Part shown: in pieces, positions 1 through 10,292 of the stretch
Layout of the letters: every line of letters starts with the position of its first letter
Position numbering within the stretch: the first letter of the stretch is position 1
Assembly: GCF_044324875.1 (NCBI RefSeq)
Contig: NZ_CP172185.1
Source of the DNA: Escherichia coli
GTDB taxonomy: Bacteria; Pseudomonadota; Gammaproteobacteria; Enterobacterales; Enterobacteriaceae
Length of the DNA: 64,000 bases
Strand: one strand, 5' to 3'
Notes under the pieces: model-generated
The model's input: the letters and a program-made list of their open reading frames with translations, nothing else
The model's database searches: none
What the model was told of the DNA's origin: nothing
Made by a program: the position numbers and the translations under genes

Positions 1-1523
<1,523 letters not shown>

Positions 1524-1786
1524 GAAGGTGAATAAGTGATAGCCCAATCGCCTTTCTGCATTTCATTCACAAAGCGCCAAACCTGAGAAGCACCAGAGCG
1601 AACTGTGCCTGGCTTAGTCTGTGGCTCAAGCTCCTGATACCGGATAAACAACTGCTCTCTTGAGCATCCAGGTTTCACATAGGGAGCGAGCTGCGACCAA
1701 CCAATTGCAACAACCTGTTTGTCTCTGAAGTCGTCGTACAATTTTCCGCCATCACCGCGGATCATCCACATCTTAGTCGCCACAAT
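1524..1786 (-). pseudogene. 5' portion of the IS-interrupted ORF (N-terminus (V/M)ATKMWMIRGDGGKLYDDFRDKQVVAIGW..)
   Basis: Reverse-strand ORF with AGGA about 6 nt upstream of a GTG/ATG start near 1771-1786; protein-like sequence through about codon 85, after which the frame runs into IS-derived sequence. Confidence 0.4.
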
Positions 1787-1893
1787 AATTCCTTCTGAAA
1801 ATACTTCATCGTTATACCGGGACGTGATCATTCCATTCAGCCACCTTATCCAGGGGAAAAACACCGATAAGATGGCTAATCAAAATGTCTGTT

Positions 1894-4800
1894 CTAAACC
1901 TGACGCCTATCAAGACTATTATAAATAGCCTCAATCTCACCTTTCAGGTTATCACCAGAGTAAACCATCGATGTATCGTATCGTTCATATCGCGCTTCCC
2001 GTGTCGCACTAAACCAGTTGAACGATCCCACGCATAGCAAACCATCATCACCAATAACAATTTTGCTATGAACACGGTTTACCAGCTTTGTAGCAATACC
2101 CAGCGCATTCAGTTTCTCCAGCGCCGCTTTAAGGTTCTGCTGCTTCTCTTTTCGCTTCTCAAAATCTTTATGTTCAGTGTTATAGCTTCTGTCAGTGACT
2201 ATCGTGACGTTAATTCCACGTGAACACGCCGCAATCATGGAATCAAGAAAACCCGTTTGCTCCAGCTTTTGCCAGGTCAGCCATGGAGAAACTATCGTGA
2301 TGTGTTTATCGGTATTTTCAAACGTCTGATTCAGGAAATTATCATGCTGCTCCACACCATGGAGTGTGTAGATTTTGGTCTCGGAAGTTTTTAAATCCTT
2401 ACGCTCTTTATAATCAAAAGAGAGCGCATTCTTCTCGGACTCAAAGAGATATTTTGCCAGTAATCCCCGCGGAGATGAGGCTGGCTGGATCTCAAACAGG
2501 TCCATATCGCCGAAGACCAGGAAACTGTCCTTCGCACGGGAGACAGCAACGTTCAGCATGCTGTTATCGCTATCAATAAACCCGCCATCCTCATGCTTTG
2601 AATAGACTGGCGAGAATATAACAATCGCTCTTTCCGCCCCCTGAAGAGAATGCACGGTGCCCACGGTGAGCGACGTTTCATTCGCGCCTGTACTGATGCC
2701 TTGTTTACCCAGCGCCTGTTTGATAGTCGATACCTGCGCGCTAAAAGGCGTCACGATACCGACAACTTCATGAAGCGATTTGCCGTAATGCGCTTCAATA
2801 TCTTGCTGGTTATCTGTCAGCCAGGCAGCTATCGTTTCAGCCTCAAGCAAATTATATCGACTTCCGCTACTTGCCAGCGCTCCTTTACCATCAATATGGA
2901 GATAACCCATTGCGGGCATTAAATTGCTCTCTTCACGCCCTCTTTTAGGCAACAACTTACCGTGATAGCAGAGCGTATTACAGTATCCAATAATATTATC
3001 GAAGCACCGGCGGTGTTCATATAGGTACATACCACGAGCCAGTTCGGGATCATATTGATAGCGCGAAGCAAACTGAGCTATTTTCATAACGCTGCCAGAT
3101 GCGGCACTTTTACCAAGGTCTGCGATTGCCGTATATTTCTCGGTAATCTCTTCTTGCGTACTGCCAGACAGAATTTTTTCCGCCAGCATGTTACCGATAT
3201 CAATCGCAGGAGCAATACTCCATATTGGCGGGATCTGCTCCGTATCGCCAATCACTAATGCCTTCTTAGCTAATGCAAACGAGGCAGCAGCCACTTCAGG
3301 AAGCACCTGTCCGGCTTCATCGACAATGAGTAAATCGGCAAAATCATACAAATAACTTTTCTCGAATTTACGTTGTCCTTTGTGCTCACTTATCTGCATA
3401 TTGCCGGGCAGCATATAGCATGTCATCACCACACATGGAATGAGTTTCATTCGACGTTGCCAACGGGCAGTTACTCCTTTAGCGCCTTTTTTCTTCTTCT
3501 CTTCCTGCAGATCATCAATTCTGGCCATATCCATCAGCCAACGACCTTCCCAGTAGTGAGTCGTCAGTAAAAATGCAGGGAAGCGAATCTGCGTATCAGC
3601 CAGTTCATCGGCCTGTGAGAAGCTCAGTTCCTCGTCGCCCTCATACCCTAAATCAAGTGTCAGCCTCTGCCACTCCTGAACCGCCTGCTGTTCTTTAAGA
3701 ACGATTTCATGGGCGGAGTCAATCTGCTTCCGGTATGTTGTTTGCTCGCGTTCAGCGGAATTGAGCAGCCCATCAATATTACGTTCGATAGTTTCAGGAT
3801 CAGACCACTGATTTCCTGCAATCAGCGCGCCTAATTTATCTTCGAGAAACAGCTGTATTTGGTACTGTCGCTTATTGCGAACCGCCGGGAGCCAGGAAAA
3901 TAATGAATAGATCAGTGATTCACCGGCGCGATATTTTTTCCATTCCGTTTTAGCACTCTTCAGTAGAGTAACTTTTTGTTCTTGCCCGGAGAGTAATTTA
4001 TTTAAATTATCGAGATATTGCTCAATGTTATCAGCAATAAGCTCACGCGCCGCCCGAACCTGGCTTAACGTTTGCCATGTTGCGTTCAGTCTTATCAGTT
4101 GCTCGGATTTTGCTGCCAACTGACCATGCAGGAGTTCAATGACCTTTTCAGGGGATGAACACTCTTTTTCAGGAAAGGCTGCCTTAGCCTTCTCCAGATA
4201 AAACAGCAGTGCATCCTCTACATACTCTTTTGACTCAACCTGGTTGAAGAAATCTTCAGTTTGATATTTTTTGGCGGCCTCAGCTTTACGAGTGCTTGAG
4301 GGAAAATAAGCGCCGAAGCTTTTCAGCTCTGGCAACCATCGTCCGGCCATCGCACCGGTGCCCTGGGAAAAATCTTTCCCGAACGCCTCGATAATGTTCG
4401 TGACAGCCTGGTTATTCGTTGAGGTCGCGATAATGACCGGAGGCTCAGATTTTTCGAGAGCCGCTCGGGCCCACTGCGTGGCGATGATAGAAAGCACCAG
4501 CGTGGTTTTTCCGGTTCCCGGAGGGCCATTAACAGCAAGGATATCGCCATGTCTGGCATCCAGAAAATGGCTTAAGGCATCGCGCTGAGCCTTTGCCAGC
4601 GGAAACTTATCTCCGGAGTGTCCAAGCCTGTCGCTGAATTTTGCTCCTGGGGCCAGCAAAGACTCTGCAGCATGAACCTCTCGCGAGGCGAAGCGATTGA
4701 AGAGTGGCACATCCTTCTTGCAAACAAGCAGGTGATCATAAAGCGAAAGGATATGGAAACTGGCACCGCCAGATTGCGCCGTTTTAACAATATAACCGTG

Positions 4801-5409
4801 CTCAGCGAGTTCATATTGCTCAGGATTTTTAATCCAGTCGCCGGCAACGTTCTTCAGCAGCCTCTCTGAATCATCCAGATATTGACGCCAATCCTGCTGC
4901 AAGGCTGCATATCGTGCTTCCCGTTCTTCATCCGTTTCGGCAGTGTTATCAACGCTGTCATCAAACTTGATAGAGAATGACGTATGTGTCGTTTTATATT
5001 TGTCATACTGCTCAATCTCACCAATCGAAAATGCCCCTTTTGGCAAAGGTTCAAGCAGGTCTCTGGGAATGGAGGTCGCTGGCGTCGGGTATAAAAAACC
5101 CTCACGGCTTAGCAAGGCTGGCGTCACTAGCGGGGTAACAATATCAGGCACGCCTGCGGAACGGTCCTTACCATGCTGCAGTAACCGAAAATAAACTTTT
5201 GGGCGCAAGACGACATCGACCGTTTCGACATCGTCTTTTTCTCCCTCAAAAAATTTACTGACAATCGCTTCGTCAAGACGTCCCGCCGCTATCCCATGCC
5301 AGTGAGTGAAATTTTGGGCGTCTTTCCGTTCAAAGCTGCCCTTTCCTGACTCAGCATCCGCAAGCGAGTTGCGCCAGTATGAGGCAAACCCTAAAGCATT
5401 TTCATCCAT
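1894..5409 (-). CDS. Superfamily-1 (Upf1/DNA2-like, COG1112-type) helicase fused to a C-terminal phospholipase-D (HKD) family nuclease domain; candidate defense protein (Mokosh type II-like architecture)
   Basis: 1171-aa ORF. Walker [13 protein letters not shown]; motif [10 protein letters not shown]; motif [14 protein letters not shown]; motif [20 protein letters not shown]-terminal HKD motif [25 protein letters not shown] about 8 nt upstream of ATG. Confidence 0.85.
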
Positions 5410-5734
5410 TACCAGTCCTATGACTCAATGAAATCCATTGATTTATCGAATATAAAATCACCGTATGGATAACTATTGTCCACGTTGAAAGGCTGGCTGC
5501 AATGTTTTGTTCACGCTTCGATACAAATACTCAGGTTATACGGAGTTCAGAAAACGACCATATCATGCTGCATGGCACATAAAAGCTTTATAACCGAAGC
5601 AGCAAAGGATTACCGGCTGCGCAGCACGCCACGAAAGCCCGTGAGCTCTACTGGACAGCGTTCAGTGCAATATTGGAGTCTGTAAGTCCAGAAAATATCA
5701 CTGTCGAAGATGGTTCTGTATGTAGGTGCGCCAG

Positions 5735-6112
5735 CTATTGTTTTGTCCGATGCTTGCGAATAAAAGCATTCAAAATGTCGCCTTCACCATGCATGACAGA
5801 AAAAGAATATTCACATTCTTTCTTTATCAAGATTCCACATAATTCCTTGTGCAAATCTACATTAACTCCCTTTCCTTTCTGTGCTTTCTTCACACCGAGC
5901 TCACATGAACTGATTAATTCAACGTTACAGGGTTTCTTCAAATAATTCACACCATCAATTAAGCCCTGGAGAATGCATCTATTTGCGGTCGTATTACTGT
6001 AGGAGAAGGTCAGATATTTTATTTTCCCTTCACATTCCAGCACAACTTCCGCCGAACCTTCACGTGTTGCAGCATCACAACTTCCTGTTGAATATATTTT
6101 CACCATCTTCAT
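5735..6112 (-). CDS. Small RNase HI-like fold protein with substituted catalytic residues (predicted inactive pseudo-RNase H)
   Basis: 125-aa ORF; by-eye alignment to E. coli RNase HI: VKIYSTGSCD vs VEIFTDGSCL, NTTANRCILQG vs RTTNNRMELMA, VELISSCELG vs VILSTDSQYV, VNVDLHKEL..HGEGD vs KNVDLWQRL..HAGHPENERCD, with the DEDD positions replaced. Strong SD (GGGGAAAGG) upstream. Confidence 0.55.
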   Translation of the reverse strand: MKMVKIYSTGSCDAATREGSAEVVLECEGKIKYLTFSYSNTTANRCILQGLIDGVNYLKKPCNVELISSCELGVKKAQKGKGVNVDLHKELCGILIKKECEYSFSVMHGEGDILNAFIRKHRTKQ

Positions 6113-6180
6113 TTTGTACCTTTCCCCTTACCAAACGAATCATGACATCCTATATCAAAGGCATTCTCGTCAAAACTTTA

Positions 6181-6960
6181 CTATCTCAGTAAATTCTCCC
6201 GATGCCACTCCAGATAACAATACGATTCAACAGAAAACGCCTTTATTTTCTCCGGCAACAAACATTGCTCTTTAACGCTAATATCCAGCTCCTTACTAAT
6301 TAATAAATGCCCATCGTTCTCAAACGAAATCCATCCCTGATCGAATAGAATATCAATATGCGCAGCCAATATAATTCCATTAAAAGGATCAAGACGTTCA
6401 TTTCCATTCTCGCAGGCAGCCCACGGCTTTATATGGCTGGCACGCAGTAAAGGTGCAAAAGTCGTTCCCGTAACAGGGCATGCCGGATACAACATGAGAC
6501 AATTTTTCCGAAAGGTACCTTGCCCCAGCCGTGCCGCAATCAGCTGCTCGCGTACGGTATCTTCAATACTTTTATCCTGCTGAATAGCAAGACAGTCACG
6601 TTGTGCCTGTTCATCTCTATCAGTCGATATTAACGAAAGAACGCGCTGCTCAATTGCACTATCAGAAAGCACACTCAATCGCTGATGAACACGCTGCGCT
6701 GAATGAGAAAGCGCAGCAGGAGCACCCTGCTCGTCACGCCAACCGACACGCACATCACTAAGCCAGGAATCAAAACGGTCACGACTATTTTTCAGACTAT
6801 TGTGAAACTCGCTGGCAGTTTTGCCCGCTCCAAATCGAGGATAAAACAAGGCAAAAGCCTCTTTCCATTTCTGAACACCCAGTCCTGCGGGTGGTTGAGA
6901 GTTACCATACTTCGACAAATACCACGCCACTTCAAGCAAATCGTCTTCAGAGCTATTCAA
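6181..6960 (-). CDS. HNH-family endonuclease (259 aa); apparent TTG start
   Basis: C-terminal HNH motif ..LRASHIKPWAACENGNERLDPFNGIILAAHIDILFDQGW..; frame is open only back to a TAA at 6988-6990 and the first plausible start is TTG at 6958-6960 with AGGA 7 nt upstream; no in-frame ATG near the N-terminus. Confidence 0.7.
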   Translation of the reverse strand: MNSSEDDLLEVAWYLSKYGNSQPPAGLGVQKWKEAFALFYPRFGAGKTASEFHNSLKNSRDRFDSWLSDVRVGWRDEQGAPAALSHSAQRVHQRLSVLSDSAIEQRVLSLISTDRDEQAQRDCLAIQQDKSIEDTVREQLIAARLGQGTFRKNCLMLYPACPVTGTTFAPLLRASHIKPWAACENGNERLDPFNGIILAAHIDILFDQGWISFENDGHLLISKELDISVKEQCLLPEKIKAFSVESYCYLEWHRENLLR

Positions 6961-7030: not shown

Positions 7031-7174
7031 CTGCTTACCTGCAAAACGGTACTGCAAACGCTAATACTCAGAACCATTAAAAGGAACAAGCAGGTGCATA
7101 CCGCTGCCATCGGTCAGTTTGTACTGCTTATCCGTTGGCCTGGCTGTTCTGACCTTGATATCTGTTAACGCCAT
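7031..7174 (-). pseudogene. intB: 5' remnant of a P4-type tyrosine integrase (intB-like) adjacent to leuX; in-frame amber then loss of homology
   Basis: Reverse-strand ATG at 7174 with strong SD (GGGAGGGG) encodes MALTDIKVRTARPTDKQYKLTDGSGMHLLVPFNGSEY-stop-RLQYRFAGKQ, matching the conserved N-terminus of P4-family integrases; TAG at 7061-7063 sits where a conserved Trp is expected; no integrase-like sequence below about 7030. Confidence 0.75.
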
Positions 7175-7324
7175 GCTTATCCCCTCCCTGTTGGTACAAG
7201 CATTATCGAACCGGAAATACCATCATCTGTACCAACATGTGTTGGTAGATGTACGTTGATATCGGTTGACCTTGAGAGAGTTAATATAGCGAAAAAGGTA
7301 GGTAACTGCTGGATTTCAGGCATA

Positions 7325-7350
7325 AAAAAAGACCTCAGTTGAGGTCTATT
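7325..7350 (-). terminator. Rho-independent terminator downstream of leuX
   Basis: Hairpin GACCTCAGTTGAGGTC followed by a T-run on the minus strand immediately 3' of the tRNA. Confidence 0.7.
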
Positions 7351-7360
7351 TACATACTTT

Positions 7361-7445
7361 TGGTGCCGAAGGCCGGACTCGAACCGGCACGTATTTCTAC
7401 GGTTGATTTTGAATCAACTGCGTCTACCGATTTCGCCACTTCGGC
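7361..7445 (-). tRNA. leuX: tRNA-Leu (anticodon CAA)
   Basis: Reverse complement reads GCCGAAGTGGCGAAATCGGTAGACGCAGTTGATTCAAAATCAACCGTAGAAATACGTGCCGGTTCGAGTCCGGCCTTCGGCACCA: cloverleaf with CAA anticodon loop, long variable arm, encoded CCA. Confidence 0.92.
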
Positions 7446-7640: not shown

Positions 7641-8660
7641 ATGTCGATGATAAAAAGCTATGCCGCAAAAGAAGCGGGCGGCGAACTGGAACTTTATGAG
7701 TACGATCCCGGTGAATTGAAGCCACAAGATGTTGAAGTGCAGGTGGATTACTGCGGGATCTGCCATTCCGATCTGTCGATGATCGACAACGAATGGGGAT
7801 TTTCACAATATCCGCTGGTTGCCGGGCATGAGGTGATTGGGCGCGTGGTGGCGCTCGGGAGCGCCGCGCAGGATAAAGGTTTGCAGGTCGGTCAGCGTGT
7901 CGGGATTGGCTGGACGGCACGCAGCTGCGGGCATTGCGATGCCTGTATTAGCGGTAATCAGATCAACTGCGAGCAAGGTGCGGTGCCAACAATTATGAAT
8001 CGCGGCGGTTTTGCCGAGAAGTTGCGTGCGGACTGGCAATGGGTGATTCCGCTGCCAGAAAATATTGATATCGAGTCTGCCGGGCCGCTGTTGTGCGGCG
8101 GTATCACGGTCTTTAAACCACTGTTGATGCACCATATCACTGCCACCAGCCGCGTTGGGGTAATTGGTATTGGCGGGCTGGGGCATATCGCTATAAAACT
8201 TCTGCACGCAATGGGATGCGAGGTGACAGCCTTTAGTTCGAATCCGGCGAAAGAGCAGGAAGTGCTGGCGATGGGTGCCGATAAAGTGGTGAATAGCCGC
8301 GATCCGCAGGCACTGAGTGCCCTGGCAGGGCAGTTCGATCTCATTATCAACACCGTCAACGTCAGCCTCGACTGGCAGCCTTATTTTGAGGCGCTGACGT
8401 ATGGCGGTAATTTCCACACCGTCGGTGCGGTTCTCACGCCGCTGTCTGTTCCGGCCTTTACGTTAATTGCGGGCGATCGCAGTGTCTCAGGTTCGGCAAC
8501 CGGTACGCCTTATGAGCTGCGTAAGCTGATGCGCTTTGCCGCCCGCAGCAAGGTTGCGCCGACTACCGAACTGTTCCCGATGTCGAAAATTAACGACGCT
8601 ATCCAGCATGTACGCGATGGTAAAGCGCGCTACCGCGTGGTTCTGAAAGCCGACTTCTGA
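7641..8660 (+). CDS. ahr: NADPH-dependent aldehyde reductase (zinc-type alcohol dehydrogenase)
   Basis: 339-aa ORF; Zn-ADH motifs ([26 protein letters not shown]); matches E. coli Ahr/YjgB by recall. Confidence 0.9.
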
Positions 8661-8789: not shown

Positions 8790-10292
8790 ATGAGCGAACC
8801 CCTGTTAATTGCCCGCACGTCGGACACAGAACTGTTTTTATTGCCGGGAATGGCGAATCGTCACGGGCTGATTACTGGCGCAACGGGGACGGGTAAAACC
8901 GTTACGCTGCAAAAGCTGGCGGAGTCATTGTCGGAAATCGGTGTTCCGGTGTTTATGGCTGATGTGAAAGGTGATTTAACGGGAGTTGCGGAGGAAGGTA
9001 CATCTTCGGAAAAACTGCTCGCAAGGCTTAAAAATATCGGCGTAAATGACTGGCAACCTCATGCTAATCCGGTGGTGGTGTGGGATATCTTTGGCGAGAA
9101 AGGCCACCCAGTGCGGGCGACGGTTTCGGATTTGGGGCCTCTGTTGCTGGCGCGACTGTTGAATCTCAACGATGTGCAATCTGGCGTGCTGAATATTATC
9201 TTCCGCATTGCGGACGATCAGGGATTGTTGCTGCTCGACTTTAAAGATTTGCGGGCGATTACCCAGTACATCGGCGATAACGCCAAATCCTTCCAGAATC
9301 AGTACGGTAATATCAGTAGCGCATCGGTTGGTGCCATCCAGCGCGGGCTGTTATCGCTGGAACAGCAAGGCGCAGCACACTTCTTTGGTGAGCCGATGCT
9401 GGATATCAAAGACTGGATGCGTACCGATACCAACGGTAAAGGCGTTATCAATATCCTCAGCGCCGAGAAGCTTTATCAGATGCCGAAACTGTACGCCGCC
9501 AGCCTGCTGTGGATGCTTTCAGAATTGTATGAACAATTGCCTGAAGCGGGCGATCTGGAGAAACCTAAACTGGTGTTTTTCTTCGACGAAGCACATCTGC
9601 TGTTTAACGATGCGCCACAGGTACTACTGGATAAGATTGAGCAGGTGATAAGGCTTATTCGCTCAAAAGGCGTGGGCGTCTGGTTCGTTTCGCAAAACCC
9701 GTCAGATATTCCGGATAATGTGCTCGGGCAGCTAGGTAATCGCGTTCAACACGCTTTACGGGCTTTTACGCCCAAAGATCAGAAAGCAGTAAAAGCTGCG
9801 GCGCAAACCATGCGGGCCAATCCGGCGTTTGATACCGAAAAGGCAATCCAGGAACTGGGGACCGGCGAGGCGTTAATCTCGTTTCTCGATGCGAAAGGAA
9901 GCCCTTCAGTGGTGGAACGGGCGATGGTGATTGCCCCCTGTTCACGAATGGGGCCGGTGACGGAAGATGAGCGTAATGGCTTGATTAATCACTCTCCAGT
10001 GTATGGTAAGTACGAGGATGACGTGGACCGGGAATCCGCCTATGAGATGTTGCAAAAAGGCTTTCAGGCCAGTACCGAGCAGCAAAATAATCCTCCCGCG
10101 AAAGGGAAAGAGGTGGCGGTGGATGACGGTATTCTCGGTGGATTGAAGGATATTTTGTTTGGCACTACCGGACCACGCGGCGGGAAGAAAGATGGTGTGG
10201 TGCAAACAATGGCGAAAAGCGCCGCCCGCCAGGTGACGAATCAGATTGTGCGTGGGATGTTGGGGAGTTTGCTGGGGGGGAGAAAAAGGTAA
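8790..10292 (+). CDS. yjgR: DUF853-family P-loop NTPase YjgR
   Basis: Start [12 protein letters not shown]..; Walker A GATGTGKT; 500 aa, as in K-12 YjgR. Confidence 0.85.

Follow-up and report, generated by a model that had tools for sequence, protein, structure and literature searches.

The cluster of short repeats located between the tRNA gene leuX and an adjacent integrase stub is very probably the attL P′ arm of a P4-family island inserted at leuX. It would contain four arm-type sites for the N-terminal Arm-DNA-bind_3 domain of a tyrosine integrase, and in this strain it would be a relic. The cluster lies in a 64,000-nucleotide stretch of Escherichia coli DNA, which is called here the window. 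The preliminary description had taken the cluster for a protein-binding operator or the remnant of a recombination site, and its location in the attL P′ arm, between the leuX core and an Arm-DNA-bind_3 integrase, agrees with both terms; the word "remnant" is also appropriate because the distal end of the island has been lost in the strain of the window.

The feature is of an ordinary and well-understood kind, namely the arm-type sites of a P4-family att site, orphaned here. Alone, the cluster matters little, since it belongs to the expected recombination and regulatory furniture of an island inserted at a tRNA gene. Nevertheless, for the leuX integrase type that is commonest in E. coli, it provides an arm-site consensus, TGTTGGTA, together with a map of the sites, and it places this type within a layout conserved from P4 across the integrase family, whose specificity classes follow the arm domain. 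It also offers a quick sequence test of whether a hotspot 37 island keeps both att arms and could be mobile.

The repeat cluster, leuX and the integrase stub

The integration target is leuX, a tRNA-Leu(CAA) gene located at 7361-7445 on the minus strand, which was detected by ARAGORN and is annotated as tRNA-Leu in identical E. coli genomes. The gene ahr is found at 7641-8660, and the window corresponds to the E. coli leuX region. The 3′ 25 nt of leuX (7361-7385, minus strand; GGTTCGAGTCCGGCCTTCGGCACCA) constitute the att core, or direct-repeat segment. The 20-bp core of P4 attP falls inside this segment, of which AST81, O157 86-24 and 55989 have a second copy at a distal or tandem island junction. 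Just after leuX, on the island side of the crossover, a terminator scan found a terminator-like hairpin with a T-run (7323-7347, minus strand), and the same hairpin/T-run sequence is found after the displaced copy of leuX where two islands meet in O157. Around 70 bp of other sequence separates this hairpin from the first of the repeats, and the whole leuX-to-int intergenic region has a length of 186 bp.

The exact 8-mer TGTTGGTA is present at 7189-7196 (plus strand), 7230-7237 (minus) and 7240-7247 (plus). A fourth copy in the cluster is degenerate, being TGATGGTA at 7218-7225 (minus). When the region is read from the tRNA gene towards int, the order of the elements is an inverted site A, a 2-nt gap, the tandem sites B and C, a 17-bp spacer, an inverted site D, the Shine-Dalgarno sequence and the ATG. 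From the tandem pair onwards, this P′ string reads TGTTGGTACAGA/TGATGGTATTTC, then CGGTTCGATAATGCT, then TGTACCAACA, then the Shine-Dalgarno sequence. Site A (7240-7249, plus strand) is TGTTGGTAGA, or TCTACCAACA in the direction from tRNA to int. Site B (7228-7237, minus strand) is TGTTGGTACA, with TGTACCAACA on the plus strand, and is the first of the direct pair. Site C, the second and degenerate member (7216-7225, minus strand), has the 10-mer form TGATGGTATT and starts 12 bp from the start of site B; the preliminary description does not include it. The spacer (7199-7215, minus strand; TCCGGTTCGATAATGCT) holds the hexamer TTCGAT and a −10-like GATAAT (7202-7207). Site D (7189-7198, plus strand) is again TGTTGGTACA, or TGTACCAACA in the direction from tRNA to int, and abuts the Shine-Dalgarno sequence of the integrase gene, GGGAGGGG by direct reading (7181-7188, minus strand), which is followed 6 nt downstream by the ATG (7174-7172).

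The cluster is therefore placed, as had been claimed, just upstream of the integrase Shine-Dalgarno sequence, while two of the positions given for it need a correction. The 10-bp inverted pair exists with its first copy at 7189-7198, the second being at 7228-7237 and not at 7229-7238. The near-perfect palindrome, of 8+2+8 nucleotides (TACCAACA-TG-TGTTGGTA), is also present, at 7230-7247, but its centre is 7238/7239 instead of 7239/7240. The functional unit is the tandem pair together with one inverted copy, not the palindrome, which results from site B and a lineage-specific extra inverted copy, site A.

In the 64-kb window TGTTGGTA occurs four times, three of them within 59 bp, and it is the only non-trivial 8-mer of the window with three occurrences, on either strand, inside 62 bp. 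Repetition by chance, devoid of any function, has in its favour that some triple 8-mer cluster of this sort appeared in 13 of 300 Markov-1 simulated 64-kb sequences (4.3%). The statistical significance of the cluster alone is modest, and the case consequently rests on its context and on the comparison with other loci. An 18-nt direct repeat with 83% identity is also present, at 7152-7169 and 7253-7270 (ACCTTGATATCTGTTAAC / ACGTTGATATCGGTTGAC). One copy covers int codons 3-8 and the other is located upstream of site A, over a conserved ATCAAC box. This repeat may be due to chance; P4 likewise has one arm repeat annotated inside int (3621-3632).

The integrase stub (7064-7174, minus strand) consists of 36 codons of Arm-DNA-bind_3, as deduced from its translation (a partial match to Pfam PF13356), followed by TAG, and it is annotated as a partial DUF4102 pseudogene. 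The protein starts with MALTDIKVRTARPTDKQYKL, and its full reading from the ATG at 7174 to the stop is MALTDIKVRTARPTDKQYKLTDGSGMHLLVPFNGSEY. Residual in-frame homology continues past the stop codon to about 7031 (tblastn, aa 1-48), where a deletion joins the region of an HNH endonuclease gene. The identical stub/HNH junction was found in 141 of the 5,426 complete E. coli genomes, and no other integrase is encoded in the 64-kb window. The region is present, at a coverage of at least 80%, in 2,292 of the 5,426. Intact relatives are about 92% identical to this region at the DNA level and possess the same domains as P4 Int, Arm-DNA-bind_3 (PF13356), Phage_int_M (PF22022) and Phage_integrase (PF00589); P4 Int is 58% identical to these intact relatives of the stub.

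Other E. coli strains show different alterations at this place. For instance, BL21-AI (L002, around 2285-2345) lacks one nucleotide immediately in front of the integrase ATG (GGGAATACG-ATG), and the start annotated for its integrase is about 56 nt downstream of the O157 start. The strains NT1W22 (L008) and D72 (L009), at around 2180-2300, have a decayed P′ arm (ATGTTGGTACAGGCGTTGGTATT..CGGTTCGA) that abuts the type I restriction gene hsdR, the integrase gene being absent; this is a further stage in the decay of the same site.

The island cargo in the window (340-6960, minus strand) is a run of defence-type genes, coding for an HNH endonuclease (6181-6960), a hypothetical protein of 125 aa (5735-6112), an AAA/helicase protein of 1,171 aa (1894-5409) and a restriction endonuclease (340-1320), all of them on the minus strand. 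A type I restriction-modification system is found further along the island in an identical strain. This cargo fits the defence hotspot 37 described at leuX in E. coli (PMC12707154). The leuX islands of E. coli, such as PAI II536, KpLE2/intB and those of hotspot 37, share this insertion site and likewise have an integrase gene adjacent to leuX.

Comparison with phage P4 and with related loci

The closest guide to the cluster is the att site of phage P4. The GenBank record of P4 (NC_001609) annotates as "attP arm sequence repeat", an annotation of sequence repeats, a 12-bp tandem pair at 3965-3942 (ATTGGGGGCATA/ATTGGGGGCATC), which is followed by a 15-bp spacer, TTAACTTCGATTAGA, and by an inverted copy, ATGTGCCCCCAA, at the int start (3926-3915). 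A second tandem pair is located 53 bp away, on the other side of the core. The literature on the P4 attP arm repeats and Pint includes Pierson & Kahn 1987 and Piazzolla 2006, as cited in PMC7286903. Site B corresponds to the P4 repeat 3954-3965, site C to 3942-3953 and site D to 3915-3926.

P4 and the window share the target leuX, the 20-bp core and the three integrase Pfam domains. They also share, in the P′ arm, the 12-bp tandem pair, a spacer of 15-17 bp with TTCGAT, and the inverted copy adjoining the int start. However, the 8-mer is TGTTGGTA in the window and TGGGGGCA in P4; the window has the additional inverted site A, which creates the palindrome and which P4 lacks; and the tandem pair of the window is about 9 bp further from the core. 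The elements differ as well, since P4 is a satellite phage and the window contains a defence island that, unlike P4, keeps only a stub of int and has lost the distal att site.

The same layout was looked for in a survey with one genome per species, which comprises 80 loci whose integrases are 57-93% identical to the query and to which those from E. coli, Salmonella and P4 were added. The pattern sought in the approximately 330 bp upstream of int was an 8-mer with a copy 10-13 bp further on and an inverted copy 8-35 bp beyond. It was matched in 81 of 85 related loci, as compared with 25 of 1,700 shuffled sequences (1.5%), and nearly all the matches have a 12-bp period and a spacer of 15-23 bp, at a near-fixed distance from the ATG (nearly always 80 bp or less). 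Chance repetition, which these frequencies, the conserved cores and the presence of the same motif at distal island ends all oppose, can be given practically no credence.

All the 8-mer copies of a locus change together with the type of integrase. The class TGTTGGTA / TGATGGTA, to which the window belongs, is associated with the N-terminal type MALTDIKVRTAKPTDKQYKL; the class TGAGTATA with MALTDTKVRSAKPEEKEYSL; the class TGCGGGTA with MALSDVKVRSAKPEAKAYKL; the class TGGGGGTC with MALTDVVARTAKPREKAYKL; and the class TGGGGGCA with the N-terminal type of P4. The largest gap between identities within and between classes corresponds to the arm domain, residues 1-90 (0.75 vs 0.59), and the gaps of the central (0.71 vs 0.64) and catalytic domains (0.78 vs 0.74) are smaller, although common descent is a confounding factor in this correspondence between motif and arm domain, and an excisionase inherited along with the integrase would vary in step too. 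A natural hybrid is found in Rahnella bruchi (L068), around 80 bp upstream of int, where a tandem pair of the TGAGTATA class is combined with an inverted copy and an integrase N-terminus that both belong to the TGCGGGTA class; recombination apparently took place at the conserved spacer GGTTCGATAAT.

Among 12 distinct sequences of the window type, coming from several genera, only 1 of the 32 motif-core columns is variable, compared with 29 of the 116 other intergenic columns (Fisher p = 0.005), which suggests that the motif cores are under purifying selection. The 2-nt centre of the palindrome varies (CA/TA/GA), its arms being constant. Site A is restricted to the window-type, Salmonella-type and L054 lineages and is lacking in P4 and in the other motif classes, and its core varies in one of the 12 window-type sequences.

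These data bear on the idea that the palindrome is the operator of an unrelated transcription factor of the host or the island, for instance a GntR-family dimer acting on TTGGTA/TACCAA half-sites. Such half-sites presumably resemble GntR-type operators, the 8+2+8 palindrome is near-perfect, and sugar-acid regulons are close: the idn genes adjoin ahr, and uxuR is situated some 35 kb away. However, the half-sites face outwards, and site A, which is needed for the palindrome, is absent in most of the lineages that keep the other three sites. Moreover, the element moves with the island and not with host genes, and all its copies change together with the integrase type. The operator of an unrelated factor is consequently most improbable and, like chance repetition, it is contradicted by the comparative data.

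The spacer between sites C and D deserves separate consideration. Its 9-mer CCGGTTCGA (7206-7214) reappears unchanged in leuX, as the 5′ half of the T-arm (7379-7387), and the spacer is invariant in the alignment of related intergenic regions. A TTCGAT at this position is conserved across nearly all the motif classes, including that of P4; it is missing in L057, L060, L067 and L071, whose target tRNA has the T-loop TTCAAGT, and in L066, whose tRNA has CTCGATT. The element may represent a half-site resembling the core, or else a −10 box (GATAAT). That CCGGTTCGA might be a copy of the T-loop of the target tRNA was considered and rejected, because the preceding bases do not consistently track the target tRNA.

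The far boundary of the island

A search for the motif at the other island boundary had been proposed, and it gives a positive answer in relatives and a negative one in the strain of the window. E. coli O157:H7 86-24 has an intact integrase of the window type, and at the far end its first leuX island carries GTGTTGGTATCT GTGTTGGTATAA, with the displaced leuX 3′ end following after about 51 bp. The same far-end arrangement is found in E. coli 55989; in both strains, two tandem copies of GTGTTGGTAT precede the distal leuX direct repeat by about 51 bp. This distal segment is carried by 1,407-1,620 complete E. coli genomes. At an equal distance, GTTGGTAT tandem pairs are present in L040 (Enterobacteriaceae) and L076 (Pectobacterium), and P4-class tandem pairs in Photorhabdus, Xenorhabdus and L054. 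The leuX-island relatives resemble P4 in having a P-arm tandem pair 51-53 bp from the core. The att sites of PAI II536, another leuX island, were reportedly delineated by Wilde et al. in 2008.

In the window, the island runs off the left end, and the 64 kb contain no second copy of the leuX 3′ end or att site. In an identical strain (NZ_AP022087.1), nanS and an AAA ATPase gene flank the point at which the island ends, and neither a leuX direct repeat nor the tandem motif was detected within 50 kb, from leuX to nanS. The missing distal repeat and motif are consistent with a decayed island.

The repeats might be the sites of the island excisionase or recombination directionality factor (RDF), a winged-helix protein of the Vis/AlpA type, and not those of the integrase. 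RDF sites are typically direct repeats separated by about one helical turn, according to PMC7498355, and the B/C and P-arm pairs are spaced by 12 bp. In addition, Vis of P4 also represses Pint (PMC7286903). Against this assignment, a distribution over both arms and both orientations is what arm-type integrase sites typically show, the motif class follows the N-terminal domain of the integrase more strongly than its other domains, and the P4 record calls the repeats attP arm repeats. Excisionase sites might account for the tandem pairs, but they agree poorly with the inverted copies and with the occurrence of sites on two arms, and as a general explanation of the cluster they are improbable.

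Two further features of these distal regions can be mentioned. All the displaced copies of the leuX 3′ end that follow a P-arm tandem pair share a 1-nt deletion, having CCTTCG-CACCA instead of CCTTCGGCACCA. The deletion spans E. coli, Photorhabdus, Xenorhabdus, Pectobacterium and other genera, as well as two arm-motif classes (L013 at about 10220-10240, minus strand; L094 at 2688-2710; L018, L033, L040, L054 and L076, about 200-240 bp upstream of int); GG is retained at this position in both P4 attP and the functional leuX. It may mark the position of the crossover, or it may be a lock-in mutation. The second locus of AST81 was also tried as a motif comparison and discarded as uninformative, since its upstream arm is part of a different element. 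This strain (L006) has at 1630-1665 three 11-bp tandem repeats, GCGTTACGTAG GCGTTACGGTG GCGTTTCG, about 340 bp upstream of the second leuX direct repeat, which may be recognised by some other recombinase or regulator where another island ends.

Proposed mechanism, regulation and other systems

From the position and architecture of the sites, their conservation, their co-variation with the arm domain and the distal motif of the relatives, we infer that the integrase is the protein that binds sites A to D and that by this binding it represses int. In an intact element, the N-terminal domain of the integrase would occupy the arm sites and its C-terminal domains the core, in the T-arm and 3′ end of leuX, so that the protein would bridge both. 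The P′ sites, the two tandem P-arm sites at the far end, and bending or directionality factors would then form the intasome required for integration and excision. This bivalent binding has a known precedent in lambda, whose integrase is hetero-bivalent, with the N-domain on repeated arm sites and the C-domain on the core (PMC2951348). The similarity to the P′1-P′3 sites of lambda attP is one of principle, as these are three direct repeats that do not adjoin int, unlike those of the window.

Since the sites lie between the tRNA gene and the int start codon, an integrase bound to them would also repress its own gene, and the P′ arm sites probably double as the int operator. Regulation of this kind has been described in other systems. 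In P4, Int and Vis both repress Pint, and an IHF site is present; for PAI I536, repression of int by its own product, IntI, has been reported (PMC7286903). More generally, when the tRNA gene and int have the same orientation and are separated by an intergenic region of around 200 bp, attL overlaps the int promoter and autoregulation results (PMC2951348). The KplE1 attL/intS promoter (Panis et al. 2010, PMC2951348) is an example, as it has a co-oriented tRNA gene and int and an intergenic region of about 200 bp in which arm-type sites separate the core from int. For both KplE1 and the window, negative autoregulation is predicted, binding and repression being experimental in the former and deduced from comparison in the latter. 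The two differ in the integrase lineage, the target tRNA (argW in KplE1) and the arrangement of the sites.

In the leuX-int region, no sigma-70 promoter was above the threshold of the scan, and the only candidate was the −10-like GATAAT, with a poor −35. The IHF consensus WATCAANNNNTTR was compared by eye with a conserved ACATCAA box upstream of the sites, with which it showed no fit.

With the integrase reduced to 36 codons and the distal att site gone, the cluster would be a non-functional relic in the strain of the window, unless an integrase of the same arm specificity were supplied from elsewhere in the genome. A different proposal, which is unlikely, is that either the orphan cluster still docks IntB-type integrases supplied in trans, or TTCGAT/CCGGTTCGA is an undescribed core-type half-site. 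In the first case, the cluster would serve as a docking platform for the integrases of other or incoming leuX islands. In the second, one integrase would bridge an arm site and a pseudo-core within the P′ arm, for autoregulation or for the control of directionality.

The main role of the repeats could instead be exerted at the RNA level, with A/B and B/D stem-loops in a leuX-int co-transcript that would attenuate read-through or mask the Shine-Dalgarno sequence. One argument comes from ICEKp1, in which int is transcribed from the tRNA promoter, its 161-bp flank is promoterless, and the deletion of the predicted stem-loop SL3 approximately doubled the activity of a reporter (PMC13023037). Given that the int 5′ flank of ICEKp1 lacks promoter activity, the operator half of the arm-site model may not apply here. 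In the window, site D abuts the Shine-Dalgarno sequence and the minimum free energy (MFE) fold of 7165-7262 pairs site A with site B. However, this fold is unremarkable for the composition of the region (MFE of −25.5 kcal/mol, z = −1.83, with 7 of 200 shuffled sequences at least as stable), and a terminator-like hairpin is already present 3′ of leuX. In most loci of the TGCGGGTA class, the inverted copy shows a C-A mismatch to both direct copies. RNA pairing also leaves unexplained the tandem copy C, the P-arm tandem pair at the far end, and the fact that the motif tracks the arm-binding domain. An RNA-level main role is thus improbable, although such a role may coexist with DNA binding.

ICEKp1 itself has a P4-like integrase at tRNA-Asn and resembles the window in the location of the integrase gene beside a tRNA gene and in the inverted repeats of the tRNA-int intergenic region. 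The ICEKp1 paper (PMC13023037, 2026) reads these repeats as RNA stem-loops attenuating the tRNA-int co-transcript and never mentions arm sites (the word "arm" occurs zero times). In our survey set, the asn-tRNA loci carry the same tandem-plus-inverted layout.
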